Positions 7,665 through 22,952 of a DNA stretch of 64,000 bases are shown piece after piece. A program made the translations under genes and the position numbers. Below the pieces are notes generated by a model. It saw only the letters and a list, made by a program, of their open reading frames with translations, did no database searches and had not been told where the DNA came from. The stretch is from the NCBI GenBank assembly GCA_963806905.1, contig CAWEAA010000008.1, positions 462,395 to 526,394 on the forward strand, in the 5' to 3' direction. Source of the DNA: an uncultured Verrucomicrobiae bacterium. GTDB lineage: Bacteria; Verrucomicrobiota; Verrucomicrobiia; Limisphaerales; UBA11358. How positions within the stretch are numbered: position 1 is the first letter of the stretch; each line of letters opens with the position of its first letter.

Positions 7665-7739
7665 GCCAGCTTAGCTCAGCGGTAGAGCAACGGTTTTGTA
7701 AACCGTGGGTCGTCGGTTCGATCCCGACAGCTGGCTCCA
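7665..7739 (+). tRNA. tRNA-Thr(TGT), 75 nt with encoded CCA, contains attL
   Basis: Acceptor GCCAGCT/AGCTGGC, D-arm GCTC..GAGC, anticodon stem ACGGT/ACCGT with loop TTTGTAA, T-arm GTCGG-TTCGATC-CCGAC. Confidence 0.98.
7687..7739 (+). repeat. attL core (53 bp, 3' part of tRNA-Thr)
   Basis: 50/53 identical to 22900-22952. Confidence 0.96.
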
Positions 7740-7756
7740 GTTAACATTGGAGCATT

Positions 7757-8020
7757 ATGAAAAATGTCACGAACGATGCAAGACAAATTTTAATTAGGAT
7801 TTTGTTGGCACAAAAAGTGAATCAGCCAGACGGTTTTGATCCGTTAGGTTGCAACCTGATCAACATCGTCCTCGACGTGCTCGGGGCTCCTCCGGACTCG
7901 ATCAGATGTTGGAACAGAGAGCGTTTTTTTGTGGAGTGGGAAAAAGTCGAGGCTGATGAAGTTAGCATCGAAAAGTTCCTGGATCAGGTCGCTCAGGACC
8001 TCGATCCGGTACGCAACTGA
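7757..8020 (+). CDS. Prophage hypothetical protein (87 aa)
   Basis: ATG preceded by GGAG, first ORF inside attL. Confidence 0.65.
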   Translation: MKNVTNDARQILIRILLAQKVNQPDGFDPLGCNLINIVLDVLGAPPDSIRCWNRERFFVEWEKVEADEVSIEKFLDQVAQDLDPVRN

Positions 8021-8030
8021 TCAATGAGCT

Positions 8031-8330
8031 ATGCGGAAAATTAACCCCAAGACTTTCGAGGCCAGGACGTTCAGGGAATCCGAGAGAATGGACATGGTAC
8101 TAGCGCTGCCCGAAGAACTGCTTCACGAATTTTTGCTTTACCAGCGGGAGGAATGGCCGGAAGGAGCCGATTTGCGGCCGGCAGCGGAAGCGCAGTTGCA
8201 GCGTCTGGCTTCAGCGAGCACCAAGAAGGTTATCAAACAAAATCGAAAATTGAGTCTATCAGCCGTTGCCATCGCCCTTTTGTCTCTAGCCGTTGCCATC
8301 GCTTCTTTCGTCCTTTCTCTTCTTCGATGA
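8031..8330 (+). CDS. Prophage hypothetical protein with C-terminal TM helix (99 aa)
   Basis: Hydrophobic tail LSLSAVAIALLSLAVAIASFVLSLL, 10 bp after previous ORF. Confidence 0.65.
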   Translation: MRKINPKTFEARTFRESERMDMVLALPEELLHEFLLYQREEWPEGADLRPAAEAQLQRLASASTKKVIKQNRKLSLSAVAIALLSLAVAIASFVLSLLR

Positions 8331-8568
8331 GCATCATGCCGCACTCGCAAAAACCGATTCGCCGAACGCCAGTATGCACGTTCGAGACTAGAGCAACTTC
8401 ACACTCGACGATCTCAGCGCAACGTGGGCAATGATAGTGAACAGCATACATCCACGTCGGCCATTTGACTGACTGGGGTGTTTCAATTTTGGTGCTCGCT
8501 TCGGTTTTCATGATGGCCATCAAAGCACAGGGCTTGCCACTTGACCCGGCGTTTACGCTGCCGCGGGT

Positions 8569-9366
8569 ATGACTCTCAAAAATTCTCTCACCACATGGGC
8601 TGCGTTGCGTGCTCCGGTCGTGAAGCCGCGGACGCGGGACTATCATCAGGAACTTATCGGCTGCATTTTCCGGAACTGGCCCGGCATGGAGGACGTGGAC
8701 GTGCTGGCGATCGCGGAGCCGGCCGTCCTGGAGTTCATCGAGCGCATCGAGCATTTGAGTGCGACGCGATACAATGGAATCCTCACGATGCTTAAAGCGG
8801 TCCTGCCGGCCGCAAAAAATCTTCGACGCCGGCGGATCCGGATGAAGGACCGGCCGTTGCTCTCACAACTGGAATTTTCTCGACTCCTGCAGGAGCTCGA
8901 CGGCCGGCCGAAGAGTCACGCGGGCCTGGTGATCCGTTTTCTATCGCACACGGGTTTGCGAATCGCGGAGGCCCGGGCCATCCGATGGCCCGACGTCCAC
9001 GAAGATTTTATCCTGGTGCCTGGCACCGTCAGTAAGAGCGGCCGGCCGCGTGTGATCCCGTTTGTGAACGGCGTTGCCGACGCACTGCAGGGCTTGAGAG
9101 GCCTCGCCGGCGATTCGGGGGCGGTGATTCCCCAGGGAGAGTGCAAACGGTCGCTGCAAACGTCCTGCGAGCTTGCAGGCCTGCCGCGATTGTCGCATCA
9201 CAGTTTCCGTCACTTGTTCGCCACGCGCTGCATTGAGAGCGGCGTAGATCTGCCGACGGTTGCGCGTTGGCTCGGCCATCAGGACGGAGGAGCGTTGCTA
9301 TCCCGGACCTACTTCCACCTGGTGGACGAGCACAGCCGGCGAATGGCTGCAAAGGTCCGGATCTAA
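8569..9366 (+). CDS. int: Tyrosine recombinase/integrase (265 aa)
   Basis: Complete catalytic set: TGLRIAE (R), SKSG (K), HSFRH, WLGH, RTYFH (Y). Confidence 0.95.
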   Translation: MTLKNSLTTWAALRAPVVKPRTRDYHQELIGCIFRNWPGMEDVDVLAIAEPAVLEFIERIEHLSATRYNGILTMLKAVLPAAKNLRRRRIRMKDRPLLSQLEFSRLLQELDGRPKSHAGLVIRFLSHTGLRIAEARAIRWPDVHEDFILVPGTVSKSGRPRVIPFVNGVADALQGLRGLAGDSGAVIPQGECKRSLQTSCELAGLPRLSHHSFRHLFATRCIESGVDLPTVARWLGHQDGGALLSRTYFHLVDEHSRRMAAKVRI

Positions 9367-9515
9367 CTTGCAAACGGATTGAACGCGTAGGTGAAGAAGA
9401 GCGACGGGGCAGTCGCCTGGGGAGTGAGCGGGGCATTTTTGATGGCCCGGTACAAGGCGATCGCCAGGTAAATTCCGCCACCGATCAACAGCCAGAGTTT
9501 CCAATGTTTTTTCAT
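9363..9515 (-). CDS. Small prophage membrane protein (50 aa, below ORF-track cutoff)
   Basis: MKKHWKLWLLIGGGIYLAIALYRAIKNAPLTPQATAPSLFFTYAFNPFAS. Last gene of the tightly packed minus-strand operon, stop overlaps the integrase stop. Confidence 0.75.
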   Translation of the reverse strand: MKKHWKLWLLIGGGIYLAIALYRAIKNAPLTPQATAPSLFFTYAFNPFAS

Positions 9516-9519
9516 AAAG

Positions 9520-9684
9520 TCAGGAGGAAGCCGGTTTGGATCCGAACAGCGAGAGAACTGTCCCCAGCGTGCTGTTGGAACTCAGCGTAGAGGACAACTG
9601 GCTCTTGACGATGAGGGTCCAGACGATCAGCGCGATGAACACGCCGAGCGTCACGGCCAAAAGCATCGAAAAGAAATCTTTCAC
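9520..9684 (-). CDS. Small prophage membrane protein (54 aa, below ORF-track cutoff)
   Basis: MKDFFSMLLAVTLGVFIALIVWTLIVKSQLSS..., GTGA overlap with upstream stop. Confidence 0.78.
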   Translation of the reverse strand: MKDFFSMLLAVTLGVFIALIVWTLIVKSQLSSTLSSNSTLGTVLSLFGSKPASS

Positions 9685-10112
9685 GATCCGGGTTTATAAT
9701 TTGCATCCACCGCGCCGTTCAAAGCGGCCGAAGGAGCCGCGGCCGCGGCGGGTGCAGGCGTGGCACTGGCAAGCGGCGTAGCGCCCGGGGGAGGCGGAAC
9801 CGGTGTTGAGAGCGCAACGACATTTGCCGGCGCCGGAGCGGCTGCCCGAACGGCCGCGATTGAAGGTAGTGCAGACGCCGGCACGTAATCCGCATAACTC
9901 TTGGCGAGCACCTTGGCCCGGAGCGCTTCCCAATCGGCCGGCGTTGGATCCGGATTGTTGAAGATGAGTTTGAGATCATCGATCACGCCAGGCGTGACGG
10001 CGATGGCTTCTTCCACCAGGGAAAGAATCAAAGCGAGCATTGCGGGTGTCATAATGTTGTTTTTGGTGAACAGTTTGGTCAGTGCGTTGATGGTGGCGTC
10101 GAGTTCGGTCAT
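9681..10112 (-). CDS. Prophage hypothetical protein with Ala/Pro-rich tail (lysis region)
   Basis: ATGA overlap with upstream gene. Confidence 0.75.
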   Translation of the reverse strand: MTELDATINALTKLFTKNNIMTPAMLALILSLVEEAIAVTPGVIDDLKLIFNNPDPTPADWEALRAKVLAKSYADYVPASALPSIAAVRAAAPAPANVVALSTPVPPPPGATPLASATPAPAAAAAPSAALNGAVDANYKPGS

Positions 10113-10738
10113 TGCAATTTAACGCCAAGCGAGGTGATCAGATTTTCGAGGTCAGTCAGGTCCTGGCCTGCGGTGGACGTTGCCTGCTGCAGCGCTAGGC
10201 TCATTTGAGCGGCCGTCGTGGAGTTGGTGACACTGGCGGCCGCGTAAGCGGCGCCGGCGTCGCAGGCCACGGCCACCGCGGCCTGGTATTTTTCGTAAGC
10301 GTTCTCCACCTGGAGCTCCACGTTGGTGGACGGATGACTTGCGGCGACGTAGGCGCCCCACAGATTCATGGCGGTATCGACGCTGACAACGGCCGTGCCG
10401 GCCGATTGATAGGCGATGGTCTGTGGCGTGGACTGGCAACCGATGATGGCCACCATCGCCAGGCATGCAAAGGCGAGCATCATCAATGGAATTTTCGGCG
10501 CTGAACTTGCGGCCGCTGCAGTTGCCGGAGCCGTATCGCTTGCCGGCGGATCATCCGGACCCTTGGCGACGCCGGCGCGCAGGAAGGCGACGGCCGCGGC
10601 CATCAGGGCCAGATAGACTTCACTGGGGATCTGCCACCAATGTTGCCAGTTGCCGAACAGCAGGACGCCGGTGGCGAGTGCGGTGAGATAGGTTTTTTTA
10701 CCCGATAGGAGTTGGAGCAATGTGCTGAGTGTGTTCAT
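10109..10738 (-). CDS. Holin-like two-TM domain fused to a lipobox-bearing helical domain
   Basis: LSGKKTYL..two TM helices..AFLRAGV, then a linker, then KIPLMMLAFACLAMVAIIG-C. Confidence 0.6.
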   Translation of the reverse strand: MNTLSTLLQLLSGKKTYLTALATGVLLFGNWQHWWQIPSEVYLALMAAAVAFLRAGVAKGPDDPPASDTAPATAAAASSAPKIPLMMLAFACLAMVAIIGCQSTPQTIAYQSAGTAVVSVDTAMNLWGAYVAASHPSTNVELQVENAYEKYQAAVAVACDAGAAYAAASVTNSTTAAQMSLALQQATSTAGQDLTDLENLITSLGVKLQ

Positions 10739-10932
10739 AGGTCAGATTTGAGGAAGTGTTCGGTTTCGTGTTCGCTGGGAATTTTAAAGCCGCGATCGCG
10801 GAGCATGATGATGATGGTGGCGGTTTTTTTTTCGTTGCTGCGGATGTGTTTCCATATGGCGCGTTGCGAGCGCAGCCAGGCTGTGAGAGCGACAGCCAGG
10901 CAGGCGGCGACGATTTCAACTGGAATGTTCAT
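10735..10932 (-). CDS. Small prophage membrane protein (65 aa)
   Basis: MNIPVEIVAACLAVALTAWLRS..., ATGA overlaps at both ends. Confidence 0.75.
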   Translation of the reverse strand: MNIPVEIVAACLAVALTAWLRSQRAIWKHIRSNEKKTATIIIMLRDRGFKIPSEHETEHFLKSDL

Positions 10933-11066
10933 TTCGTGGTGGGGGCAAAGCCCCAGATGTAACCAAGCGCAGCCAGCACGGGGAGTGCCAGCAGTTCGCC
11001 GATGGCGGGGATGAAAAGCATCCCCACCAGGATCACGGTCAAAAAAAGTTTGGTGCCAGTGCTCAT
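10929..11066 (-). CDS. Small prophage membrane protein (45 aa, below ORF-track cutoff)
   Basis: MSTGTKLFLTVILVGMLFIPAIGELLALPVLAALGYIWGFAPTTK, ATGA overlaps at both ends. Confidence 0.78.
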   Translation of the reverse strand: MSTGTKLFLTVILVGMLFIPAIGELLALPVLAALGYIWGFAPTTK

Positions 11067-11533
11067 GAGAACCAGGTCGTGGGATTCCAGGGAGAGGTGG
11101 ACCAGCTCGAGTCCGCCGCGGCCTGGGCGGATTCAGTGGCCGCGTTGTTGGATGCGGCCGTGGCAGCCGCGTTGGCGGCGGCGGTGCCTTGGGTGGATGC
11201 AATCGTTTGGTACATGGCGCCGCCTGGCTGATACGAGCCGGCCACCACGTCCTGCGCGGCCGCGTTTTGCTGTTCGGTGGCCGTCAGCAAAGGAAGCTGG
11301 GTGAGCGCAACGGCGCCCTGGTAGGGAGTTGAACTGACAACTGCACTTTTGACGGCTGAAGCCGCGGTCACGAGCGTGTTCCACGGAGCCAGAAGGACAT
11401 CCATGAAAGTCTTCGTGCCGGCGGCGATATCGGCCTTGAAATTTTGATACGCCTTGTACATCTCGATGGCCACGTAAACCCCGACACCGAGCGTGAGGAT
11501 GATCATGATGTGTTTCCAGGGGATTTTTTTCAT
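11063..11533 (-). CDS. Prophage membrane protein, N-terminal TM and Ala/Thr-rich tail (156 aa)
   Basis: HIMIILTLGVGVYVAI TM segment, ATGA overlaps. Confidence 0.8.
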   Translation of the reverse strand: MKKIPWKHIMIILTLGVGVYVAIEMYKAYQNFKADIAAGTKTFMDVLLAPWNTLVTAASAVKSAVVSSTPYQGAVALTQLPLLTATEQQNAAAQDVVAGSYQPGGAMYQTIASTQGTAAANAAATAASNNAATESAQAAADSSWSTSPWNPTTWFS

Positions 11534-13368
11534 TGGTTGAGGATGGCTTGCCAGTAGATGGTGTCCGCGGAAGGGAAGTTACCGGTGTCGGAAATATAAA
11601 AGCCCGCCGTGGTCATGTTGGTGATCACAAAAACAGTTGCACCACTTGGGGACGAGCACGCCAGGCTGACTGAATAATTGGTTGAAGGCAGAGGCGATGA
11701 AAAGAGAACGTTGGTGTGCGATAAGGTGCCTGCTGAAATGTACAACAACCCGGCCCGATACCAGGGTGGCAAGCCAGTGAGGCTGGCTGCAGGTGTGTTT
11801 GAGGTTGATGAAGCATCTCCCGCCAAGAAAGCGGCAGTGAGCGTTGCATCGACTTTTGTGTTGCCGTTAACTTCTAATGGTTGCGATGCTGCATTCGTCC
11901 CTATGCCGATGTTCCCTTTGTTGAATGAGAGGACGTTGGTGTAGAGCACTGTGTTGTTCATTTGGTGCCAGACCCAGGCCACGTTGCCGCCAGTAACGAA
12001 TTCCTGGCATATCAGGTAGTAGCCCGAACTGTACTCCAACTCTTGGATATAACCCGGGCCGTCCTCCTGATTGAAAACTGTGAAAGTTGCGAGATTGTTT
12101 GTCGTTCCGACACTGAGGCTGGAAGGAAAAATTACGCCATCCGGTGACAACCACAGATTTTGACCCTGGCTGTCGTCCACCGGCGTGTCCGGCCCGTCGT
12201 AAAAATTTCCAGTGGCCGTGCTCATGAAATGCACTGGCGTTACGTAAAACGATGCGAAGTCCCAGATGCTGTTGCCGCTGATTTTGTTGTAGGTAGTGTT
12301 CGCCAGGCGCATGGCGTTGGTGTAACTCCCGGCCTCAATCGTGTTGTTAGCAATTATATTTCCACCACTGCCAAAGCTGCCACCGTCAATTTCAATCGCG
12401 CAGTCCCCGCCGCATCCCAACCAGATGATGTTGTTCTCAAAGGGCACGGCATTCGCCCAGGTGCGGAAATAAATCACCCGGCGCAACCGATCAAACTGCC
12501 CATCCGCGATGACTGTGCCGTAGCCCTGAAAAGCATTGGTCACGTCCAAGCCCGACACCGCGTTGGTCCCGCCCAAAATAATGCCGTCCTGTTGCGGGTA
12601 GATCCCGCCACCCGGGTGAGCAGCCGTCTTGCCGCACAAAAGGAAATTATGCATGTAAAGCGTCGTGCAGGTATCAAGGATGAACGGCGAAGTGCCATCC
12701 CTGGCATCGTACAGCGAAAGGTGATCAATTTCCAGTGTCCCACGGCCGATGGTCTGAATTTTCGCTATGGCATTGGTTGCGTCCAACAGAAGGATCGTGC
12801 CGTTGGTGGGGGCAAGCTGCAGGTTGCCGCTGAAATCGTTGCCGACCCCCGTTAATCGGATCGTGGGTTGCCAGAAATTAGATCCGCCGTCCCAACTGTC
12901 ATAGTAAGCGATGGGGCCGTGAGGAATGAAAATCACGCGGGGAAGAAAATAAGCTGACCCGGGAAAAAAGACGATGCCTCCGCCGGCATTATAGGCTGCC
13001 TGGATCGTGTTTGAGACGGCAATCGAGTCATCCGTCACTCCGTCCCCGACCGCTCCCCAAAATTTCACGTTGAACACGGGCAGATTGTTGCTGGCGGAGT
13101 CACACACCCCATGTATCAGGCCGTAGAAAGTGCCGTTGCTATAAACGCCGCCCACGTTGGTCGGGTTAGTTGAAACGGGGTTGACCAGATTTGCGTTCGT
13201 GATCGGCCAGTTGTTGGTTGCCAGGACGCCGAGCTTGGCCAGCGCTGCCGTCGCATTCTGAGACTGCAATAGTCCCCGGGAGAAAGGCGTCGTCTGCACG
13301 ACCGGGCCGTCAGCCGCGGCGTGCCAGGCTGCAAGCGCAAAACAGAATGTCAGGATTTTTTTAAACAT
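11530..13368 (-). CDS. Beta-helix (pectate-lyase-3-like) spike/depolymerase with N-terminal signal peptide (612 aa)
   Basis: Start MFKKILTFCFALAAWHAAA-DG overlaps the upstream stop. FNVKFWGAVGDGVTDDS...GGGIVFFP motif, GNIGIGT linker, tail-fibre-like C-terminal beta domain. Confidence 0.8.
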   Translation of the reverse strand: MFKKILTFCFALAAWHAAADGPVVQTTPFSRGLLQSQNATAALAKLGVLATNNWPITNANLVNPVSTNPTNVGGVYSNGTFYGLIHGVCDSASNNLPVFNVKFWGAVGDGVTDDSIAVSNTIQAAYNAGGGIVFFPGSAYFLPRVIFIPHGPIAYYDSWDGGSNFWQPTIRLTGVGNDFSGNLQLAPTNGTILLLDATNAIAKIQTIGRGTLEIDHLSLYDARDGTSPFILDTCTTLYMHNFLLCGKTAAHPGGGIYPQQDGIILGGTNAVSGLDVTNAFQGYGTVIADGQFDRLRRVIYFRTWANAVPFENNIIWLGCGGDCAIEIDGGSFGSGGNIIANNTIEAGSYTNAMRLANTTYNKISGNSIWDFASFYVTPVHFMSTATGNFYDGPDTPVDDSQGQNLWLSPDGVIFPSSLSVGTTNNLATFTVFNQEDGPGYIQELEYSSGYYLICQEFVTGGNVAWVWHQMNNTVLYTNVLSFNKGNIGIGTNAASQPLEVNGNTKVDATLTAAFLAGDASSTSNTPAASLTGLPPWYRAGLLYISAGTLSHTNVLFSSPLPSTNYSVSLACSSPSGATVFVITNMTTAGFYISDTGNFPSADTIYWQAILNQ

Positions 13369-13992
13369 AGATGACTGAGATGCCGTCCCCACCGTTGGCT
13401 GCGGACACGTACCAGGATCCGAAGTCGCGCTTCCCACCAGGGTCCGCTTCGATTTCGTATTGATCACCCGGGTTAAGCTGGATCGGCTGATGCGCTCCAG
13501 AATTGCCGATGTAAACCGCGCCGGCGTTGGCTGCGCGATCGAGGCTTTGCTGTGCGATGATGATTGCCCGTCGGAAATAGGATCCCGCGGCCGCAAAGGC
13601 GATGGCCGCGCCACCGCCCACAGTATTTTTCTGGAATTGGCCTTCAGCTTCGAGGGCGCAACCGGCGAGCGTGTTGGAGATGGGCGCCTGATTTACATTG
13701 ACGTTGCTGGTGACGCTGACGTCGCCGTTTTGATCGGCGAATTGCTGACGTAGAAGGTGATCGTCACCGGCACGCCCGAGTCGTTGTAAAAAGTCAGCTT
13801 GCCGAACTGGGGAGAGGCATCGTCGCCGAAGCCCGAGCCGGTTTCGCTGAAATCATATTCGTCGCCGGTGCTGGTGATGACACGGAAGGCCCCGTTGGTT
13901 GCTGTCAGCAAAAAGTATTTCCCCGTGATGCACATGGCGAAGACGCCTGACGCATTGCCGGCTATGGGAATTGTGAGCGTGATCGGTTTCAT
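13361..13992 (-). pseudogene. Penton/spike-base-like all-beta protein (~210 aa) split by a 1-bp deletion near 13724
   Basis: The 99-aa and 86-aa ORFs join through an open -1 frame (..PIKT / DVSVTSNVNVNQAPISNT..). Span is 632 bp = 3n+2. Second domain RRAIII..AVYIG..LNPGDQYEI recalls PM2 P1. Confidence 0.7.
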
Positions 13993-14496
13993 GATTTGTG
14001 TTTGAACAGGGCGATCAAGGCCACCAGGGCCCCCACGCCGGCCAGAATCAGGCCCAGAGTCTTGTAGGTGATCGAGCCGCCAGTCCCTGGCACAGGCTGG
14101 TTTAAAGCGTTGCTGGCGGTCTGCAGGCCGTTGGCTGCGGAAGCTGAGACCCCCTGGACCGCATTCGAGAATTGATCAGCCAGCTGACTGATCAGCGCGT
14201 CCGCGTTCGGATCGCCCACCGTGATCGTTGAGCCAGTGCCGGCATCGATCGTTCCCACTTGGCCGCCCACTTTTGATGCTCCGCTTAGATCCACTGCTCC
14301 GGCTTCCTGGTATTTGCCTTGGGCGCCCACCGCGATCGAACCGGTCGTGGCCGCGGTGCCCGTGTCCGTCACGTTCGGCGAGGCCGCTCCGCTCGTGGTC
14401 AACGTCTTTTGCGAGGCTCTGCTGTGAACTGCTCGAGGCGCTCCAGCCAACCAACGGCAAGAAAAAAGGCAGATGATAGATGAGGTGAAGTATCAT
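13989..14496 (-). pseudogene. Gly/Ser/Thr-rich virion membrane protein with C-terminal TM (~168 aa) split by a 1-bp insertion near 14416
   Basis: ATG 14496 overlaps upstream TGA. MILHLIYHLPFFLPLVGWSASSSSQQ continues in another frame as SQKTLTTSG...LILAGVGALVALIALFKHKS. Span is 508 bp = 3n+1. Confidence 0.75.
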
Positions 14497-14930
14497 ACCG
14501 TCTTGCACATGATCAGTCCCAGCGGCTTGTAACCCTGGCTCGCGCCGAAGCGATACAAACTGGCCAGGCGCGTCACCCACATGATTGTTGGAGCGGAGAA
14601 ATGTCTGGCTAGCGCGTCGCCCGCATCGAAAACGAATTTGAAGGAGGTTTTCCCCAGGGCTGCAACGCCTTCGATGATCAGCCAGCCCAACGCGTTGCGC
14701 GAGTGGATCATCACGAAAGCCGGTTTGTCGTCCACCTGGACGGTTGAGGCCTGGAAGGCACCGGCCTTGACCAGGCGCGTGAACATCCCCGGTTCATAGA
14801 TGCCATCCAGAATCTTGCCGGCGATCGCCCCGAGCTCGGCTTCCGCCTGCTGCAGCTCGCCTTCGCTGCTCTCCAGGATGGAAAACAGCTGCGTCTCGGT
14901 TATCAGCAGGCGTTTTTTATCGGCGTGCAT
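14493..14930 (-). CDS. Prophage protein, possible GNAT-like fold (145 aa)
   Basis: LIIEGVAALG..DALARHFSAPTIMWVTR..LYRF..QGYKP resembles the GNAT C-terminal pattern. Confidence 0.55.
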   Translation of the reverse strand: MHADKKRLLITETQLFSILESSEGELQQAEAELGAIAGKILDGIYEPGMFTRLVKAGAFQASTVQVDDKPAFVMIHSRNALGWLIIEGVAALGKTSFKFVFDAGDALARHFSAPTIMWVTRLASLYRFGASQGYKPLGLIMCKTV

Positions 14931-15105
14931 ACAACAAACCAAAGGTGAGGAGGATCGCCAGAAAACCGCCCGCGATGACCATGATCGTGGTAGTGCTCAG
15001 CGGGCCACCGCTGTTGTTGACGGTGACGGGGCCGACGCCGCCCGTCGAAGCTCCCGACGATGCGCTGGCGCTCAAACCGCCTCCGCCTCCACCTAACAAG
15101 CTCAT
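14917..15105 (-). CDS. Small Gly/Ser-rich virion membrane protein (62 aa)
   Basis: C-terminal TM followed by basic residues, ATGA overlap. Confidence 0.8.
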   Translation of the reverse strand: MSLLGGGGGGLSASASSGASTGGVGPVTVNNSGGPLSTTTIMVIAGGFLAILLTFGLLYARR

Positions 15106-15239
15106 TTTTTCTTTCTAAGGAGCACCAACACCAGCAGCCCGAAAAGAACCGCCACGGCGATCCAGGGGACCGTGCTGGTGACTGCCTGCACTCGCTGGGT
15201 CTGGTTTCCCTGGCTCAGCAACAGTTGGGCTGTGTCCAT
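15102..15239 (-). CDS. Small virion membrane protein (45 aa, below ORF-track cutoff)
   Basis: MDTAQLLLSQGNQTQRVQAVTSTVPWIAVAVLFGLLVLVLLRKKK, abuts both neighbours. Confidence 0.8.
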   Translation of the reverse strand: MDTAQLLLSQGNQTQRVQAVTSTVPWIAVAVLFGLLVLVLLRKKK

Positions 15240-15590
15240 TTATTTTTTGCGGAACAACAACAGGATCGCCACGAGCACGCCGCCGCAGATCAGGATCCAC
15301 GGCAGATACTGGGTGAGCGTCGAAGTCGTGGTGGCGGGTTTGGCCGCGGTCGTGCTGGGTGAAACGCTGAAAAGTTTGTAAGCGTTGGCAGCCGTGGTCC
15401 CCAACCCCGACAAACCGCTCACCAGGGAAGAAAAGAAGTTGCCGCTGGTGTTGGTGTTGCCGCCGCTGCTGTCAACCGGGGTTGATAGAAACAGCGGGCT
15501 GCTGTTGGGGGCCGTGGAACCGTTAAGGTTCAGACCCAAGCTGCTTGAATCCGAGCCGAGCCCTAAAAGGTCTAAAGTTGGATCGTCCAT
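15240..15590 (-). CDS. Virion membrane protein with C-terminal TM (116 aa), positional equivalent of PM2 P3
   Basis: Immediately downstream of MCP, ends LPWILICGGVLVAILLLFRKK. Confidence 0.78.
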   Translation of the reverse strand: MDDPTLDLLGLGSDSSSLGLNLNGSTAPNSSPLFLSTPVDSSGGNTNTSGNFFSSLVSGLSGLGTTAANAYKLFSVSPSTTAAKPATTTSTLTQYLPWILICGGVLVAILLLFRKK

Positions 15591-15653: not shown

Positions 15654-16559
15654 CTAGCCGAGTGTCGGAAGACCAAGCCGCTGCGTAATGCGGCGCAAGG
15701 TGCCGTTGGAAGCGGCCGCCAGCGTCAGATTAAGCTGCGTCGAAGCAACCGAACTCACGGCGCGCAATGACTCGAACAGATCGTCGTGATCGAACATCAG
15801 GGGGAACAAACCCGCTTGCGGATTCATGTCGTAGTTGGTCAGCAACTGCGCGTTTTCGTTCGCGGTGATGTCGTCATAAATGACGTTGGCGCCCGCGAGC
15901 AGCCGCGCCTGAATGATGCCCTTGCTGCCCGCGACGCTGTCGGAGGGATCGAAGATGTCCACCTCGGAGATCAGGTCCGTGCCGGGCATGCCCTGGAAGA
16001 TGTTCGCCAGCGGCACCAGAGCGGAGCTCGTCTGCGAATCATCCGCCTGCCACTTGATGATCGGCGTGGCTGCGCCGATGCCGAAATCGTCCACGCAAGC
16101 TGTGGCCGCGAGGACAGGAGTCGTCCCGATCAACGGGATCTTCACCTGGAACGTGTCGTTGGTGCCGAGCCAGTCGGTCGTGCAGGCCAACCCGTTCTGG
16201 TAATCTGCGCGTTTGCGCCACGGCTCCTCAAAAAAGATCGAGAGCAAGGTGCGGCCGCTGCCGGCGCCGGTGCCGGCGTAACCGATTGAGGCATATTTCG
16301 AGCCGTTGAGCTGATTGATCGTGTCAATCTGCACGGCCGTCGCGCGCCGGATTTGTTTCGACGCCAGAAGAATCTGGATGTCGCCACTCGTGACTGCAGA
16401 GAGTGCGGGTGCGTTGGCGTTGCCGGCGCCGGCATCGCCAAGGATGAGCTGGATGCTCTTATACCGGGGCCCCTTGGGGCAATTGATGGTTGCGACGGTC
16501 CCCGTGGCCACGCCGGTGATGTCTTGAAGTTGGATTTTACGATTGGGAGCAAAAGGCAT
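15654..16559 (-). CDS. Double jelly-roll major capsid protein, PM2 P2-like (301 aa)
   Basis: N-terminus LQDITGVATGTVATINCPKGPRYKSIQL and C-terminal DDITANENAQLLTNY..LFPLMFDHDD match the pattern of PM2 P2 as I recall it. Size, beta-rich composition and flanking TM genes agree. Confidence 0.85.
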   Translation of the reverse strand: MPFAPNRKIQLQDITGVATGTVATINCPKGPRYKSIQLILGDAGAGNANAPALSAVTSGDIQILLASKQIRRATAVQIDTINQLNGSKYASIGYAGTGAGSGRTLLSIFFEEPWRKRADYQNGLACTTDWLGTNDTFQVKIPLIGTTPVLAATACVDDFGIGAATPIIKWQADDSQTSSALVPLANIFQGMPGTDLISEVDIFDPSDSVAGSKGIIQARLLAGANVIYDDITANENAQLLTNYDMNPQAGLFPLMFDHDDLFESLRAVSSVASTQLNLTLAAASNGTLRRITQRLGLPTLG

Positions 16560-16610: not shown

Positions 16611-16766
16611 TTACGAGGCGGTGGCCGGCGACGCGGTCGTGACCGTGGAAGCTTTCTTGGGCAGGAACTTCCGGACCAATGGCACGATGACCACGATCGC
16701 CGTGGCACAAGCGAGCGTGACCAGGACGAAGGTCACGATGTTTTCGCGAGAGAAGATTTTTTTCAT
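16611..16766 (-). CDS. Small membrane protein upstream of MCP (51 aa), positional equivalent of PM2 P7
   Basis: MKKIFSRENIVTFVLVTLACATAIVVIVPLVRKFLPKK... Confidence 0.75.
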   Translation of the reverse strand: MKKIFSRENIVTFVLVTLACATAIVVIVPLVRKFLPKKASTVTTASPATAS

Positions 16767-16997: not shown

Positions 16998-17325
16998 ATG
17001 ATGACAAAAATCCTTCTCGATCCGCTCCCAGGCACTGGCGGTGGAACGGCTACCCCGAGTTCATCCTCTGAACCGCATAATGCAGAAACGCCGCCGCCTG
17101 CTCCGCCGCCAGCGGCCACTACGGTCCTCCAGGGGACCAAATCCGAGCGCGAACTGCAGCTTGAAGAAGAGAATCAACGCCTGGCCAAGGAAAAAAAGGA
17201 CCGGGAGATAAAGATCGCCGAGGCTCGAGGATGAAAATCATCGGCTGAAATCGCCGCCGTCCGATCCGCAGCCGGCCCCAACCGGCCAGGAAGAAGAGTA
17301 CCGTTGGCGCCCCTTCAAGCTTTAA
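16998..17325 (+). pseudogene. Pro-rich coiled-coil protein (~108 aa) split by an extra G at 17222/17223
   Basis: Removing one G continues the heptad pattern KIAE-LEDENHRLK...RWRPFKL* and ends 6 bp before the next ATG. Span is 328 bp = 3n+1. Confidence 0.7.
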
Positions 17326-17331
17326 AATGTC

Positions 17332-18078
17332 ATGGCTGCGAAAACCGAGTCCACAGCAGCAAAAGGAAACGGAGCTCCTCCGCCAGTGGCGCCGCGGCCG
17401 CCTGCAGGATCGTCTGGAAAACCTCCCGCTGGAATTCCTGCTGCGCCATCAACTCCACCGCCTCCGGGAAAAACAGGAGGACGTCCTCGCAAAGACGGGT
17501 TGCCTCCCGGCTCGCCGCAGGCTCAGGCGGCTGATAAGAAATACGATTCGGAGCGCCACAAGCTGGCTCGTGAAACGGCCGTTCAATTGGCTGAGCCGCC
17601 GGCGCTCCCTTCAGCCCTTGCGCCGAACGCTGGTCCAGGCCCAGCGCCGAAGCCTGGTCTTCTTGGCGAGCTTGCTGGTGAGGAAGCTCCGCCAGTCCCC
17701 TGGCAGCCAGAGACACTGACCGGCCTGGTTGACGATCTCATCGAGGCCGCGGAGGAGAATCGAGTCGGCGGTTTTATCGCCAAGTGCGCTGAAGCGGGTA
17801 TCACCGGAAAACTCTGCAAAGAGATCGAGGCCGATGCGCACTTCCCCAAAACCGCCAAGGCCCTGCTCAAGCACAGCATCCCGCGCCTGGCGGCAAAGTG
17901 GTTGAACCGCGCCGGCATCTCCGCTGAGTGGCAGGAGGAAATTTCCGTCCTCACGGCCGTCATCCTGATCATCAAACAGAATGCCAAACTGAACGCCAGG
18001 TTCGAGGAAATCGTCCACGCCAACAAACAACCGGCGCCGGCGCCGGTAAAGAAAGGTCCGGAGGTGATCAAGGTATGA
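17332..18078 (+). CDS. Prophage protein with Pro-rich N-terminus and AT-hook-like GGRPRK motif (248 aa)
   Basis: Long ORF, ATGA overlap with next gene. Confidence 0.75.
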   Translation: MAAKTESTAAKGNGAPPPVAPRPPAGSSGKPPAGIPAAPSTPPPPGKTGGRPRKDGLPPGSPQAQAADKKYDSERHKLARETAVQLAEPPALPSALAPNAGPGPAPKPGLLGELAGEEAPPVPWQPETLTGLVDDLIEAAEENRVGGFIAKCAEAGITGKLCKEIEADAHFPKTAKALLKHSIPRLAAKWLNRAGISAEWQEEISVLTAVILIIKQNAKLNARFEEIVHANKQPAPAPVKKGPEVIKV

Positions 18079-18436: not shown

Positions 18437-18607
18437 GAATCCCGATCGCTTTTGCAAGGCCCGCAGAATTCCGGATCCTGATCCGGCCGCATGGCTTTTC
18501 GTTTCTCAGGTTCACCGATGCCACGTTGCCGCTGCCCAGAGTCGAGCCGGGAGGATCCGATTTTCCAGACGCGCTCGCCGCGACTTTTTATTTCTGCTCT
18601 CCCTGCC

Positions 18608-19282
18608 ATGCCCGACTATTCACTCCCCAGTTGCATCACGCTGATCTTCGGCAAGGGCGGTAGTTGCAAAACCACTTTTGCTTTCGCGTACCTGCTCAAC
18701 GTGCTTGCCGCCTGCCGTTTCATCTTCGACGATCGCGGCCAGGCTTCCACCAGATTAAAGCTCAAAGCTTGCACAACGCTCCGTGATCTCGAGCTAGCGC
18801 TTCTCACCCGTTGGGTCTGTTTCAATCCTCACATCATGTTCCCTGGAGCAAGACTCCCGGACGGATTCCTTTGGTTCCTGAACTGGGTGTTTGAAGTCAG
18901 CAAACGTGGACCGGGAAAAAAAATCCTGTTTGTGGATGAGCTCTGGCAATGGTCCAACTCACGCCGGCCGGTCCCGCCCGAATTGGAGAACGTGATCCGG
19001 ACCGGACGCACTGAAGGCCTCGAGCTTCTGTCCGCCACTCATAGCCCGCGGGAATATCACGAGCTCATCCGGAGCCAGGCAACCGAGTTTATCGCGTTCA
19101 ATACGATCGAGCCGGCGCAACTGGAGTCCATCGAGCCGTATTGGTCCGGAGTGGAAGCCGCGGCGAGACTGCAGGCGGGACAATTTCTCGCTTACGATCG
19201 CAACTCAGGCGGGACCGCGGCCGGGATGCTCGAGCCGGGATGGCCACCAGGAAGATTTTTGCCCGTTGAAGTCAGTCCGTAG
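18608..19282 (+). CDS. FtsK/HerA-superfamily genome-packaging ATPase (A32/PM2 P9-like, 224 aa)
   Basis: Walker A GKGGSCKT near the N-terminus, FIFD, Walker B ILFVDE, arginine-finger RTGRTEG, SATHSP, IRSQAT. No TM segment. Confidence 0.85.
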   Translation: MPDYSLPSCITLIFGKGGSCKTTFAFAYLLNVLAACRFIFDDRGQASTRLKLKACTTLRDLELALLTRWVCFNPHIMFPGARLPDGFLWFLNWVFEVSKRGPGKKILFVDELWQWSNSRRPVPPELENVIRTGRTEGLELLSATHSPREYHELIRSQATEFIAFNTIEPAQLESIEPYWSGVEAAARLQAGQFLAYDRNSGGTAAGMLEPGWPPGRFLPVEVSP

Positions 19283-19604
19283 CTGCCAGGCGGAACACGT
19301 CCCTGATTTTCGCCCGGATCTCGCGCCGGCGTTCGAGGCTGACGTGCCCTTTGCGTCCAAAAATTTTACTGCTGTCCAAAAGATAGATCACCGAGCAGTC
19401 GCAGAAGGTTTCCCAATCGAGCCCGTCCTCACCGTTCAGCAAAACCTCGTGTCCTTTGGGGCCTCGACTCTGACGCTGGCTCGTGCAAAAAAGCGCATTG
19501 ACGACTGAGGCATTGGCGCAGAGCCTAGGATGCGAGACCAGAACGACCGGGTGCTCCCCTTTTTTGTCAAACTTGAACTGCCAAACGTCGAATTGGTCCT
19601 TCAC
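19272..19604 (-). CDS. PemK/MazF-like toxin
   Basis: DVWQFKF..HPVVLVS..CTS..HEVLL...GL...C...G.VS pattern, 110 aa, coupled to upstream small gene. Confidence 0.75.
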   Translation of the reverse strand: MKDQFDVWQFKFDKKGEHPVVLVSHPRLCANASVVNALFCTSQRQSRGPKGHEVLLNGEDGLDWETFCDCSVIYLLDSSKIFGRKGHVSLERRREIRAKIRDVFRLAATD

Positions 19605-19828
19605 TCAGGGACCTCCAGGCTCGAGGCTTTAGCCAGTTCGAGCAGTTCGCGGTTACGCGCCGGCGTAATGCCGAAGTCATAATCCGGCGGGAATGGTTCC
19701 TTCGTCTCTGCCCGGACCACTGTGAGCGTGTAGGACCCATCCCCGTGGTCTTCGTAGGCGAGTTTCTGCCGGGGTTTGGCGGACGGCAGCCGGACTCTCT
19801 GGTAATCGTCAACTGTGAGCGTTTTCAC
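19601..19828 (-). CDS. AbrB/MazE-like antitoxin
   Basis: TVDDYQRVRLP swapped-hairpin pattern, GTGA overlap with toxin. Confidence 0.7.
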   Translation of the reverse strand: MKTLTVDDYQRVRLPSAKPRQKLAYEDHGDGSYTLTVVRAETKEPFPPDYDFGITPARNRELLELAKASSLEVPE

Positions 19829-19863
19829 AGCGGTAATTTACCGCATTGCAGGACCATTTTCAA
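19829..19863 (-). promoter_or_regulatory. Sigma70-like promoter with palindromic operator, leaderless arrangement
   Basis: Minus strand TTGAAA-17 nt-TAAATT-6 nt-GTG. Palindrome GCGGTAA-T-TTACCGC at 19830-19844 covers the -10. Confidence 0.7.
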
Positions 19864-19969
19864 GGGGATAAGCGGATGGGTTAAGCGGACGTTTTGGAGG
19901 GGGTTTTTCCGGGGGGTAAGGCGGACAGATGCTCCGGATCCGGCTCTCCCAAGCTCAAAAAAGGGGGGG

Positions 19970-20251
19970 TTACATGGACGCCGGCCGTGGAAGTTGTCCG
20001 GCTATTTCCGCCGCCTCGAGGTCCTCCAGGCGCCACAAAGGCTGTCCACCTAACCTCACCGGCCGCGGGAAATGGCCGCTGGCAATCTTCCGGTCCAGCG
20101 TGGCCCGGGACCAGCCGTATCGGGCCTGCACGTCCTTCTTGTGCAGCCGGGGAACGTTCAGGATGAGCCGCTGCAGGCGTTGGACGGTCTCCTGGAGGGT
20201 GCGGATACCCCGGGAGAGTTCTTCCGGGCTCATTAACGCTGTAGCAGTCAT
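19970..20251 (-). CDS. AlpA-family HTH (excisionase/regulator)
   Basis: DVQARYGWSRATLDRKIASGHFPRPVRLGG..LWRLEDL. Confidence 0.88.
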   Translation of the reverse strand: MTATALMSPEELSRGIRTLQETVQRLQRLILNVPRLHKKDVQARYGWSRATLDRKIASGHFPRPVRLGGQPLWRLEDLEAAEIAGQLPRPASM

Positions 20252-20508
20252 GGACGGCTGCTTTGCATCGGCTGTGCCAAAAAAGTGGACCGGGCATCGA
20301 CCCGGTCCGTGTCGTCCTGGTATGGGGCTTTCTCCACGGCCTCCTTGAATTCATAACGGAAAGCCGCCGCTTCCACCTCTTCCATCGCGTCCAGTCGAAG
20401 GATCTTCAGCAGCGGCGGCAAAAGCAAACACAACGCCTCACACGTGTCCCGGTCCCGGCATTTCGCCGCTTCAAAATGCAGAAACCGGATGGCGTTTTGT
20501 GTTGTCAT
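20248..20508 (-). CDS. Prophage hypothetical protein (86 aa)
   Basis: ATGA coupling at both ends. Confidence 0.65.
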   Translation of the reverse strand: MTTQNAIRFLHFEAAKCRDRDTCEALCLLLPPLLKILRLDAMEEVEAAAFRYEFKEAVEKAPYQDDTDRVDARSTFLAQPMQSSRP

Positions 20509-20657
20509 TTTTCGGCCAGCCATTGGCAAAAACCGTAAACGGCTTTGCGCACGAGCTCGGCAACAAGAGCCAGGGGAAACAGGCACGTCACCAGGACCAG
20601 ACTGAAAAACGCCCAGCCCAGGGATTCATCCGAGTTGCGGTGGACCTGGATGTTCAC
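20505..20657 (-). CDS. Small prophage membrane protein (50 aa)
   Basis: MNIQVHRNSDESLGWAFFSLVLVTCLFPLALVAELVRK..., GTGA/ATGA coupling. Confidence 0.65.
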   Translation of the reverse strand: MNIQVHRNSDESLGWAFFSLVLVTCLFPLALVAELVRKAVYGFCQWLAEK

Positions 20658-20857
20658 GCCCTCTCCTTTCCCAAAGCGATTGCACTCTCTTGTTCCTCGA
20701 ACAGATCTCTAAACCTGTGCAGCTTCGCCTGGAAGTGGTCCGGAGCATTCTCGGCAATGATGATCCTCCCTCCCTCGCTCCTCGGCACAACCCAACCCTG
20801 GCTGTAGCCGAAGCGGAGCAGGTTGAAAAATTTGTGCAGCCGTTGCTCCCTCGTCAT
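20654..20857 (-). CDS. Prophage hypothetical protein (67 aa)
   Basis: MTREQRLHKFF..., AGGAGG RBS, ATGA overlap. Confidence 0.7.
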   Translation of the reverse strand: MTREQRLHKFFNLLRFGYSQGWVVPRSEGGRIIIAENAPDHFQAKLHRFRDLFEEQESAIALGKERA

Positions 20858-21051
20858 GTGATCCTCCTTTTTAGAGCGTGCGGACGCCTGCTCCCATCGG
20901 AAAGTGGCAACCTGTATTCCCGGCGCGTTTTCGGATCCACACATGCCGAGCAGAGATCTTCCTCTACCCACTGACAGGTTAAGCCGGTCTTTCGATGAAC
21001 GCAGGCGTTGTAGTAACTACAGCCGCATTTGCGGCAACGCTTTTTTTTCAT
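20854..21051 (-). CDS. Small Cys-rich zinc-finger phage protein
   Basis: CRKCGC....AC...C.WV..DLCSAC. Confidence 0.78.
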   Translation of the reverse strand: MKKKRCRKCGCSYYNACVHRKTGLTCQWVEEDLCSACVDPKTRREYRLPLSDGSRRPHALKRRIT

Positions 21052-21350
21052 GGGGCTTCCGGTCGTAGCACCTGATCGACAGGCGGGTTCCAGACGATGT
21101 GATGGCCACGGCAGCGGTCGCAGTGCGCCGGCTGCCCGTTCTCACCCTCGACGCGCTCACACATCGCGTCGCAGTCCGTGCAATACCAGAAGCCCTTCAA
21201 GAGCACCGTCTCGATTTTGCGTTTCAACTGATCGCGGATCAGGTCCACGTCCTCCAGCCGCGCCGGCTGGAGTGGACGCGGCAAAGGCCGCGGCGTTACG
21301 ATTCGATAGTTGCGCAGCGGTAGCTGCGCTTGATATGTTTTCGTTGTCAT
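21048..21350 (-). CDS. Zinc-ribbon phage protein (100 aa)
   Basis: CTDC...CDRC. Confidence 0.72.
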   Translation of the reverse strand: MTTKTYQAQLPLRNYRIVTPRPLPRPLQPARLEDVDLIRDQLKRKIETVLLKGFWYCTDCDAMCERVEGENGQPAHCDRCRGHHIVWNPPVDQVLRPEAP

Positions 21351-21396
21351 TCGGTTTTTTGGTTGTGCCGGGGGCGTGAGTGCCCCCGGCAAATTT

Positions 21397-22551
21397 TCAG
21401 GTTCGCGCCGCAGTCCCCCCCGCGGCTTTTTGTTGGCGTGCGGCCAGCGCCTTGTCTGCCGCCTCGCGCGAGATCGGCGCGCCGCCGAAGATAAACCACA
21501 CTCCTTTTTGCGTAGCGAAAGCCGCCGCGCTAGGGCATCGGATGATTTTGTGTTCCTTTACCATCGAGGAGATTTCATCCAGGGTGGATCGTGCAACGGT
21601 TGGATTCAGGCGATGTGCAAGACGCCAGCAGGCCCCGAACTCGGCCAGTTCCTTTTTGCTCGCGCCCTGGCGCCAATTTTCGATCACAGTACCAACGTCG
21701 AGCAGGAAGAGATTTTCAGCGTTGAGTTTTTTTGCCCCACCAGCCGTCTTAGAGGCGTTAAAATCCGTTGAACGCTTAAAGAATTTCCTCCCTCCTGATG
21801 GTTTTAACGCTGGAGTCTCCCTTATATGGCCGTCAATGGCGGTTCGATCAACCGGAGATTCACTGCCACAGTGACCGCCGTTGACAGTTGGTGTGACCGC
21901 CATTGACGGTTGGTCTGACCCGGAATTAGCCGGTAAAGAGACCGCCGTTGACGGTTCTTCTGCCCGGACGGCACCGTCACTGTAACCGCCGTTGGCGGTT
22001 GGTGTGACCGCCGCTGGCGGTTGGTCTGACCGAGCAGCATGGCCATTTGCACCGGAATTGACGGTTTTCTGTATTTCTTCGTCACCGACCGCCACTGACG
22101 GTTGGCCTCTTGCGCTCGTTTTCGCCATGATGGCCATGTATTCCTGCCCGGCAAAAGGAAGCTCGGGTTGATCACAAGCGCCGCAGATCCCCCAGCAACA
22201 TTTTGGCCAGCGATTTTGACACCAGATCCAACCAGTCTGGATGAGCTTGTCACGCCAGACGGCAATCGTGTCTTCATCGTGACCGTAAAGGCGTCGAAGG
22301 TCCTTGAGAGAGCAATAGACGCGACCCCACCCATCGCCTCCGAATTTGTTCATGAAAGAGTTATCGGTTAAGACAGTGAAAAGCCACTTTGCCCCAACAA
22401 ACTTCTTTAGACGCTGATCCTGCGAGCAATTTCGCCGTAGCTGAGGCATCATGTTGTTGAGCGCCTCTCTTTTGATTTGCTCTGCCGTTTTCGGCTGTGT
22501 GAGCTCGAAGGCTTTCTGATGGCCGTTGCCGTTCCCGTTGAATTCGTTCAT
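21397..22551 (-). CDS. Putative theta-replication initiator (winged-HTH N-domain, iteron-encoded linker, C-domain)
   Basis: YCSLKDLRRLYGHDEDTIAVWRDKLIQTGWI wHTH pattern. Repetitive central linker encoded by DNA repeats. Confidence 0.7.
   Translation of the reverse strand: MNEFNGNGNGHQKAFELTQPKTAEQIKREALNNMMPQLRRNCSQDQRLKKFVGAKWLFTVLTDNSFMNKFGGDGWGRVYCSLKDLRRLYGHDEDTIAVWRDKLIQTGWIWCQNRWPKCCWGICGACDQPELPFAGQEYMAIMAKTSARGQPSVAVGDEEIQKTVNSGANGHAARSDQPPAAVTPTANGGYSDGAVRAEEPSTAVSLPANSGSDQPSMAVTPTVNGGHCGSESPVDRTAIDGHIRETPALKPSGGRKFFKRSTDFNASKTAGGAKKLNAENLFLLDVGTVIENWRQGASKKELAEFGACWRLAHRLNPTVARSTLDEISSMVKEHKIIRCPSAAAFATQKGVWFIFGGAPISREAADKALAARQQKAAGGTAART
21829..22103. repeat. Iteron-like quasi-palindromic repeats ACCGCCRYTGRCGGTT (putative phage origin)
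   Basis: Copies start at 21874, 21896, 21941, 21985, 22007, 22051 and 22088, with a variant at ~21829. Confidence 0.8.
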
Positions 22552-22754
22552 CGCTGGCCTTTCCCGTTGGTGTGTCCCTTGTGGTTGACTGCAAGCTCGA
22601 TGACGAGCCTGCCGATCTTTTCGGCTGGAAGACGCACAGTCCGATGCCCTCTCCGGATCGTGGTGATCCGGTGTCGCTTCAAGAGTCGCCTGACATTTCG
22701 AGGCGAGCAGTGCAGCGCGATCGCTGCAACGTCATAGGTTATTTCTTTTGTCAT
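22548..22754 (-). CDS. Small HTH protein (Cro/Xis-like, 68 aa)
   Basis: ITYDVAAIALHCSPRNVRRLL, AGGA RBS, ATGA overlap with initiator. Confidence 0.75.
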   Translation of the reverse strand: MTKEITYDVAAIALHCSPRNVRRLLKRHRITTIRRGHRTVRLPAEKIGRLVIELAVNHKGHTNGKGQR

Positions 22755-22899
22755 ATTTGTCCTGTGTTGATTGTTCGTCACGTATAGAGGACCGCGCCGG
22801 CGAGCTGACGGCCGTTTGGCCTGGTTAAACCCCGGCACCGGCGCCGGCGAGCTGAAGGATTTTCAAAAGTGACCGTCTTTAGAGGATGAAAATGAAGCC

Positions 22900-22952
22900 G
22901 CAACGGTTTTGTAAACCGTGGGTCGTCAGTTCAATCCTGACAGCTGGCTCCA
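22900..22952 (+). repeat. attR core (53-bp 3' fragment of tRNA-Thr)
   Basis: gcaacggttttgtaaaccgtgggtcgtcagttcaatcctgacagctggctcca, lacking the tRNA 5' part. Confidence 0.96.

Follow-up and report, generated by a model that had tools for sequence, protein, structure and literature searches.

Our analysis of a 64,000-nt stretch of contig CAWEAA010000008.1 from assembly GCA_963806905.1 (hereafter the window; coordinates are window positions, and the source genome is coded G000) very probably reveals a 15.2-kb prophage in tRNA-Thr(TGT), with a PM2 P2-like capsid protein and a P9-like packaging ATPase, for which a route from integration to exit can be proposed. Because its capsid protein has a predicted PM2 P2-like fold and its ATPase matches P9, the element likely makes tailless, membrane-containing icosahedral virions. 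Judged from its sequence, it is probably a real and intact PM2-like temperate virus, and it and many of its relatives are likely still mobile.

Capsid protein, packaging ATPase and insertion site

The major capsid protein (MCP) scores 27.8 bits against PF18628 (P2_N; cut-off 25) and has 41 close homologs (41-92% identity), three of which carry the NCBI name 'major capsid protein P2', and 180 representatives at E<=0.001. Its AlphaFold2 model, built from a 42-row alignment, is all-beta with a predicted local distance difference test score (pLDDT) of 92.6. The best PDB match of this model is PM2 P2 (2vvf_A; Foldseek E 2.4e-19), with Z 29.8 and a root mean square deviation of 1.9 Å over 258 residues, followed by the STIV capsid at Z 20.2. 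At the sequence level, a broader capsid hidden Markov model finds PM2 P2 at E 4e-19; hhalign of the narrow capsid alignment against PM2 P2 gave a probability of only 23%, and a phmmer search of PDB sequences with the capsid protein returned nothing useful. The fold is thus predicted, from the model, to be PM2 P2-like, and the double-jelly-roll (DJR) capsid assignment made in a preliminary description of this DNA survived the refutation test set for it in advance.

The ATPase, which is of the FtsK/HerA type, is encoded on the strand opposite to the capsid gene and, as described earlier, lacks membrane segments, there being no hydrophobic stretch above a Kyte-Doolittle value (KD) of 1.6 in the enclosing open reading frame (ORF) 18491-19282. 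Profile alignment matches it to PM2 P9 with 98.9% probability over 179 columns, and its best PDB matches are the STIV B204 packaging ATPases, at E 5.5e-7 with the single sequence and at E 2.9e-12 over the full length with a 14-row profile. These matches group it with viral packaging ATPases, in agreement with the first proposal, and the protein is predicted to be a packaging ATPase homologous to PM2 P9, its activity being predicted from a sequence with a deviant Walker A. It also matches phrog_2666, labelled 'terminase large subunit' (E 6.5e-15). This label probably reflects an ATPase-domain match and not a true terminase, because the protein is too short for a terminase with a nuclease domain and aligns with PM2 P9. 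A tailed phage (Caudoviricetes) was rejected, since no HK97 capsid, portal or nuclease-domain terminase is found among the 30 window ORFs (Pfam, PHROG). The earlier statement that terminase, portal and tail genes are missing therefore stands for portal and HK97 families and needs qualifying for the phrog_2666 label of the ATPase and for the tail-spike PHROG matches of the fibre-like protein discussed below.

The element is bordered by a 53-bp direct repeat whose copies start 15,213 bp apart, as first reported, and are identical at 50 of 53 bases (E 4.6e-17 in a genome search). The tRNA-Thr(TGT) at attL is the sole TGT copy among the 76 tRNA genes called in the genome. The G+C content of the insert (57.8%) is near that of the contigs (55.5-57.3%), so composition does not mark the insert. 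The three mismatches between the att copies correspond to one compensated T-stem pair and one T-loop base. A same-genus search for tRNA-Thr(TGT) gave a match in 57 of 59 other genomes, and alleles were compared over the 29 best-matching genes: the window 5' half combined with the attR copy occurs in 10 of these 29, the present attL version in none. The T-arm allele now in the window tRNA is that of the lone tRNA half of L004, a relative described below. Together, the host-type allele pattern and the L004 match show that attR is the displaced host half and that the crossover occurred upstream of the T-arm; going by these alleles, the attR copy is the original tRNA allele of the host. Genome G030 has the window 5' half with the attR allele and the same upstream gene as the window at 92.6% identity, and no capsid, ATPase or integrase match was found within 20 kb around this site.

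The window therefore shows what is expected of a tRNA-integrating temperate element, namely a tRNA 3'-end repeat at both borders, a restored tRNA and an integrase beside one att site. The arrangement of the alleles shows that an incoming circle with a tRNA-Thr 3' half recombined in the anticodon arm, rebuilding the tRNA with the element's own T-arm allele and moving the host half to attR, with the adjacent tyrosine integrase as the putative catalyst. This integrase is intact, as originally described: all of the R-K-H-R-H-Y positions, the catalytic roles of which we take to be the established ones, are present in the alignment. To the right of attR, the region 23000-26000 is of low G+C (46-49%) with unannotated ORFs and may represent an earlier island at this tRNA. 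Elsewhere in the source genome, a related integrase with 38% identity adjoins tRNA-Thr(CGT) where a contig ends (G000:C5:281848-283101), and further integrases occur on C14, C3 and C7; a second capsid gene was not found in this genome.

Relatives, mobility and gene content

Excision would involve the integrase and the AlpA-like protein, which would regenerate the circle; the joined form is seen in a relative only. In this relative, the metagenome contig L004 (15,908 bp), bases 1-126 recur at 15777-15902 and are followed by a 6-base unmatched tail, the gene order is a circular permutation of that of the window, and one tRNA-Thr 3' half, without a 5' half, has the integrase side on one flank and the rep side on the other. 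The 99-aa ORF found between attL and the integrase in the window is also present in L004, and a lone tRNA-Thr 3' half like that of L004 occurs in L021. The pattern in L004 and L021 is that expected of an excised circle with a joined attP, the alternative being an assembly collapse of the att repeats, and argues for mobility.

Within the order, the narrow capsid profile matches in 14 of 401 genomes, source genome included, and within the genus the ATPase profile matches in 21 of 162 genomes (24 places, five of them fragments). The loci compared comprise 13 of the 14 other capsid places, 17 ATPase places and 3 tRNA regions. The capsid gene lies beside the ATPase gene in 13 of these 17 ATPase places, and the other four are near contig ends. 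Both att copies are present in 11 elements (the window, G341, G372, G305, G216, G353, G282, L116, L119, L159 and L161), which measure 13.4-18.4 kb, have tRNA 3' repeats as ends (Thr, Leu, Arg, Ala, Val, Pro) and all encode a tyrosine integrase; several of the 11 integrases are in the profile seed, and Pfam or non-seed scores confirm them. The full tRNA was not called within the stretch analysed for G282 and L159. Integration in this Limisphaerales lineage thus appears to rely on tyrosine integrases at tRNA genes, and the att pairs together with the circular relative argue that the elements move. Across relatives, capsid identity to the window ranges from 18 to 58%. Of 37 loci, not counting probable duplicates, 16 have the ATPase and capsid genes on opposite strands. 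Capsid and ATPase trees (FastTree; PM2 is the sole reference) disagree for some elements, e.g. L109, which points to module exchange. Other loci in this set show a decayed remnant at tRNA-Thr(TGT) with broken integrase and ATPase (L123; G015:C67:6382-8567), another integrase and holin-lipoprotein gene that follow tRNA-Thr(TGT) and are truncated where the contig stops (L124; G455:C43), a tRNA-Met just upstream of the ATPase inside the element (L159:9919-9993) and a tRNA-Val between the capsid and penton genes (L112:14682-14758).

All eight ATPase matches in the GTDB genome set are in Verrucomicrobiota, five of them in Limisphaerales or subdivision 3, and the host genes flanking the closest match, L159 (Limisphaerales), are 77-91% identical to source-genome genes. 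These data point to a Limisphaerales-type verrucomicrobium as the host, in line with the verrucomicrobial host first suggested. A tblastn search of 50,697 GenBank phage records with the capsid protein and ATPase gave no match, so the family is easily missed, though common in the host genus. Pattern-limited scans of IMG/VR (with the capsid protein, the capsid alignment and the ATPase alignment) and of genome contigs (with the capsid alignment) returned no relative, and a phylum-wide ATPase search with a cut-off of E<=1e-20 gave no match in any of 400 other genomes, a count based on 7 candidates scored per genome that does not amount to absence.

The positions equivalent to P7, P3, P8 and P10, between capsid and spike, are occupied by membrane genes (assigned by position). 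A 19-aa segment above KD 1.6 is present in 11 small or membrane-type ORFs in total, and several of these are coupled via overlapping stop/start codons, which bears out the earlier estimate of about ten coupled small membrane genes. By analogy with PM2, the small membrane proteins would organize a membrane vesicle that capsid trimers coat, the vertices would be capped by the two-jelly-roll protein, and the ATPase would package the DNA. A profile comparison with PM2 gp h, represented by one sequence, gave no match for the 248-aa protein at the ORF-h position, where Vinavirales encode an assembly factor upstream of the ATPase; this ORF-h-like family was found with custom profiles by Yutin et al. 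(PMC9502842). A scan for promoters and terminators remained at chance level, and no RNA run containing the element is listed among public runs.

The replication-initiator-like gene contains internal 22-bp-period repeats at 21829-22108, and repeats with a period of 22-23 bp occur in all six rep genes examined, their sequence differing from gene to gene; because the period is not divisible by three, selection is likely to act on the DNA. By analogy with lambda O, the repeats are predicted to be an iteron origin, so that the winged-helix initiator would bind iterons in its own gene, using a theta-type origin instead of the rolling-circle P12 of PM2. Primase/helicase-type genes take the place of the winged-helix initiator in G372 and L018. 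The slot beside the ATPase holds exchangeable toxin-antitoxin pairs, with PemK in the window, G372 and L021 and PIN in G305 and G424; the MazF-type pair would likely stabilize the element. The features of the element are listed in the table.

Table. Annotated features of the tRNA-Thr prophage and its borders, in window order
Feature	Position	Strand	Evidence and remarks
tRNA-Thr(TGT)	7665-7739	+	ARAGORN; 3' 53 bp (7687-7739) = attL with phage-type T-arm allele
Two small ORFs, 87 and 99 aa, in the attL-to-integrase interval	7757-8330	+	No family over cut-off
Tyrosine integrase, 265 aa	8569-9366	+	PF00589 E 2.6e-18; phrog_1 E 6.5e-34; alignment
50-aa membrane protein, end of late operon	9363-9515	-	Hydropathy
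Conserved protein, probable accessory in lysis from its place behind the holin-lipoprotein gene	9681-10112	-	Comparison with relatives
Holin-like N-terminus fused to lipobox-bearing helical domain, 209 aa	10109-10738	-	Predicted holin/spanin-type lysis protein
Three coupled membrane-protein genes	10735-10932, 10929-11066, 11063-11533	-	Hydropathy, comparison with relatives
Fibre/spike-like protein, 612 aa, signal-peptide-like N-terminus, pectate-lyase-like segment	11530-13368	-	PF12708 E 1.5e-6; tail-spike PHROGs
Penton-position gene, about 214 aa in relatives	13361-13992	-	Two predicted jelly-roll domains; frameshift near 13722
P10-position membrane protein	13989-14496	-	Contig comparison; one extra base at 14415 in assembly
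GNAT-position protein, conserved in clade	14493-14942	-	ELP3 acetyltransferase matches at E about 1 only
Three small C-terminally anchored membrane proteins, P3/P8 positions	14917-15590	-	Hydropathy, comparison with relatives
Major capsid protein, 301 aa (predicted fold)	15654-16559	-	PF18628 match; all-beta model; PM2 P2 2vvf_A best
51-aa membrane protein, P7 position	16611-16766	-	Hydropathy, comparison with relatives
248-aa conserved protein, ORF-h position	17332-18078	+	Conserved in relatives; inverted together with ATPase
Predicted FtsK/HerA-type packaging ATPase, 224 aa	18608-19282	+	Profile matches
PemK/MazF-type toxin and likely antitoxin	19272-19604 and 19601-19828	-	PF02452 E 6.6e-8; antitoxin by position
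AlpA-like helix-turn-helix (HTH) protein, likely excisionase	19970-20251	-	phrog_66 E 1.8e-6; PF05930 below cut-off
Small early genes, 112, 105 and 114 aa, conserved in relatives	20248-21392	-	Comparison with relatives
Winged-helix replication-initiator-like gene, 384 aa	21397-22551	-	PF13730 (HTH_36), phrog_270 weak
Small HTH protein	22548-22838	-	TIGR01764 E 7e-4, below cut-off
attR, displaced host 3' half of tRNA-Thr	22900-22952	+	Repeat search, allele comparison

Predicted fibre export, proposed exit and competing readings

The fibre-like gene, the start of which lies at 13368 and not at 13614, had its start misplaced in the preliminary description, which also missed the frameshift in the preceding penton-position gene. 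A signal-peptide-like start (basic, hydrophobic, small-residue pattern) is found in 22 of 23 post-penton fibre-like proteins, none of which has a later membrane anchor, and the same rule flags 6 of 92 control ORFs (capsid, ATPase, integrase, penton). The tail-spike PHROG matches of the window protein are confined to residues 179-231. The fibre is predicted to be exported by Sec and would be added to the vertex only once the particle has left the cytoplasm. Exit, the weakest step of the proposed route, would depend on the holin-lipoprotein fusion and its neighbour, which would open the membranes without a recognizable endolysin. The lipobox-position Cys of the fusion is invariant (9 of 9 aligned), PF23987 (Pam3 gp28 holin) is over cut-off in relatives L010 and L018 and not in the window protein, and the ESM Atlas matches are to unnamed, mostly viral clusters only. 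It is of note that L040:9998-19551 (G372) is the only element without a signal on the large post-penton gene and has, instead of the HTH initiator, a DnaB/AAA_25 protein, and that FN3-like proteins close the late operon in G372 (L041:1424-1834) and G305 (L042:18107-18466), at least one of them with a signal-like start.

Similar signals are not restricted to tailless elements. Searches for terminases in the genus gave 0 matches for PF04466 and matches for PF03237 in 43 of 162 genomes, and 10 terminase regions served as a tailed control, of which only G481 and G517 continued through head and tail-like genes. In both (L158:1-8767 and L146:2242-13120, respectively), several genes of the structural block, among them the one in the last tail position, have signal-like starts; these ORFs have no PHROG match, and their tail role is positional only. 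Exported fibres specific to DJR viruses, implying budding, were therefore ruled out, and because the tailed prophages of the genus share them, the signal-like segments are a host-lineage trait and not a DJR-specific one. A report on chronic release in Lentisphaerae (PMC11361711) deals, in its available part, with filamentous phages.

Taken as a whole, the picture in which active tailless viruses that integrate in tRNA genes are common in Limisphaerales and complete their virions outside the cytoplasm, with a Sec-exported fibre docking on the penton during or after endolysin-free exit by the holin-lipoprotein fusion and tailed phages possibly sharing the export route, is tentative. Another possible reading, to which we give real weight without favouring it, is that the virus is active but the fibre-like protein is secreted glycan-binding or glycan-degrading cargo that works at the cell surface, be it in lysogenic conversion, in stripping the capsule on exit or in blocking superinfection, with receptor binding left to the two-domain penton alone. 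The export signal itself, the comparable signals of the genus's tailed prophages and the variation of glycosidase or lectin domains between relatives (pectate-lyase-like, alpha-galactosidase, LamG) would all suit such cargo, as would the reading of Porphyromonas gingivalis prophage signal-peptide genes as host-surface modifiers in the available part of a published report (PMC10367356). On the other hand, within the late operon the gene is always the next one behind the penton-position gene, and the signal is followed by conserved motifs, of which one type is a weak match to the crAss001 tail fibre gp22 (E 0.04). Moreover, the fibre N-motif tends to go with the penton C-domain whether or not the capsids are similar, in small numbers and among kin that are not independent. 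Among the scenarios with an active virus, extracytoplasmic decoration of the virion is slightly ahead of secreted cargo.

Several observations weigh against an intact virus with this route. The terminase-large-subunit PHROG is matched by all 14 aligned ATPases, a Zot-like PHROG weakly by 3 of the 14 and TrwB weakly by two relatives, and the Walker A reads GKGGSCKT, with the sensor Gln changed to His, in the window, L003 and L004. The penton-position protein has no profile match to PM2 P1, a spike with a single-jelly-roll penton domain; the model of its L004 counterpart, for which two jelly-roll domains are predicted, reaches Z 7.6 to the PR772 spike base and Z 6.9 to PM2 P1, both below the noise level of Z 8, and Foldseek gave no clear match for the penton model. 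The signal rule is home-made and also fires on 550 of 1742 long host ORFs. Endolysin or cell-wall hydrolase families number 0 among the 30 window ORFs and 103 selected proteins of relatives, an unknown fold being possible, and no repressor was identified in the window element. As for the attP junction and empty attB to which the preliminary description looked, neither joint was found for the window element in contigs of runs X1-X4 (depth about 1-6), whereas G030 does provide the host allele without the phage, with a downstream flank that differs from that of the window, so that it is not an exact empty site.

Some of these points bear on whether the element is PM2-like but defective, having integrated once and lost the ability to make particles, a possibility raised by Yutin et al. 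for the verrucomicrobial members. We consider this unlikely. In the assembly, two structural genes are frameshifted. The penton-position gene is split by one base near 13722, and comparison with L004 and L010, which have a single ORF of 214-216 aa, shows that window ORF 13693-13992 belongs to the same gene as the sequence ahead of the fibre; one X3 contig, which apart from an extra base is identical over 453 bp, spans the site in frame, and a contig of X1 ends there, so this correction depends on one bridging contig. At 14415, contigs of X1, X2 and X4 have one base fewer than the assembly, and without this base the start of the next gene becomes coupled to the neighbouring gene. Because short-read contigs of near-identical strains contradict both frameshifts and are in frame at both sites, the two are likely assembly errors. 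One-base differences also occur in intergenic stretches at 17222 and 18541, in a single contig each, and 16278/14999 form one low-depth joint in run X1. The lack of an identified endolysin or repressor, the deviant Walker A and the decayed remnant with stops in the ATPase at tRNA-Thr in G015 would fit a defective element; yet the missing endolysin and the Walker A variant are common to the circular relative L004, and both att copies and the integrase catalytic residues of the window are intact. A non-viral integrative element or satellite, combining a cellular DJR homolog with a conjugative or Zot-type ATPase, is highly improbable and already largely refuted by the capsid fold (PM2 P2 at Z 29.8, cellular DJR-fold enzymes being lower in the list at Z about 11) and by the P9 match, which, with the PM2-like gene order and a 224-aa ATPase without membrane segment, outweigh the weak TrwB and Zot matches in few relatives.

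Comparison with known systems

With its PM2 P2-like capsid protein and an FtsK/HerA-type ATPase homologous to PM2 P9, the window element probably belongs to the Vinavirales. It shares with PM2 (Corticoviridae, Vinavirales) the predicted capsid fold, the ATPase and the gene order from P7 through the spike position, at 18% identity for the capsid protein and 21% for the ATPase. PM2, on the other hand, has a 10-kb genome, the rolling-circle P12, the P5 lysin and no annotated integrase, and the window element differs in all of these. Membership of the Corticoviridae, which are marked by a clade B capsid, P12, the P5 lysin and gammaproteobacterial hosts, was rejected on the basis of the 18% capsid identity, the different initiator, the verrucomicrobial host and the fact that no lysin was found.

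The nearest published counterparts are the verrucomicrobial Vinavirales prophages (MCP clade A) catalogued in 2022, described as lacking an endolysin, a Vinavirales core gene absent from the verrucomicrobial members, and as possibly degenerate (PMC9502842). Like the window element, these have a verrucomicrobial host, a PM2-type capsid, a packaging ATPase, small membrane genes, a spike-position gene and no recognized endolysin. In the available part of that paper, integration mechanisms beyond the HGV-2 DDE transposase are called unclear, and supplement S3 lists one integrase for 54 genomes. The clade A prophages with an assigned host belong to Opitutae, whereas the host of the window element is of the Limisphaerales type, and the first 5 genome maps, which we take as verrucomicrobial, show the ATPase and capsid genes co-oriented and other rep types (PMC9502842). 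As far as that account extends, the lineage of the window element is set apart from clade A by its tyrosine integrase, tRNA att sites, iteron-bearing winged-helix initiator, the inverted ATPase module in 16 of 37 loci and a circular relative.

Two other groups share part of this biology, in the portions of the reports available. The Vibrio int-type DJR prophages, of about 14 kb, integrate site-specifically through a tyrosine integrase (PMC12715192) but target dusA and five other loci, with tRNA mentioned in the main text once and only for dusA, encode a repressor and have gammaproteobacterial hosts. The P. gingivalis prophages resemble the window element in having Sec signal-peptide genes and in including tRNA-integrating phages, but they are tailed, and their signal proteins are without known function and with no fixed post-penton fibre-like gene (PMC10367356). 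The preliminary description thus overstated the novelty of the element, given the catalogue of PM2-like prophages in Verrucomicrobia (PMC9502842), the integrase-bearing DJR prophages of Vibrio (PMC12715192) and the NCBI protein names. The literature searched, outside which most subscription papers lie, describes no Limisphaerales DJR prophages and no exported fibres in DJR viruses. The kind of virus is already known, and it is the host order and the set of integration, replication and exit modules that were not found in print. If the fibre joins outside the cytoplasm and exit needs no endolysin, this would be an assembly and exit route that we have not found described for DJR viruses. For this lineage, the findings address two points left by Yutin et al. 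2022, namely the route by which most Vinavirales prophages integrate and whether the verrucomicrobial members are dead.

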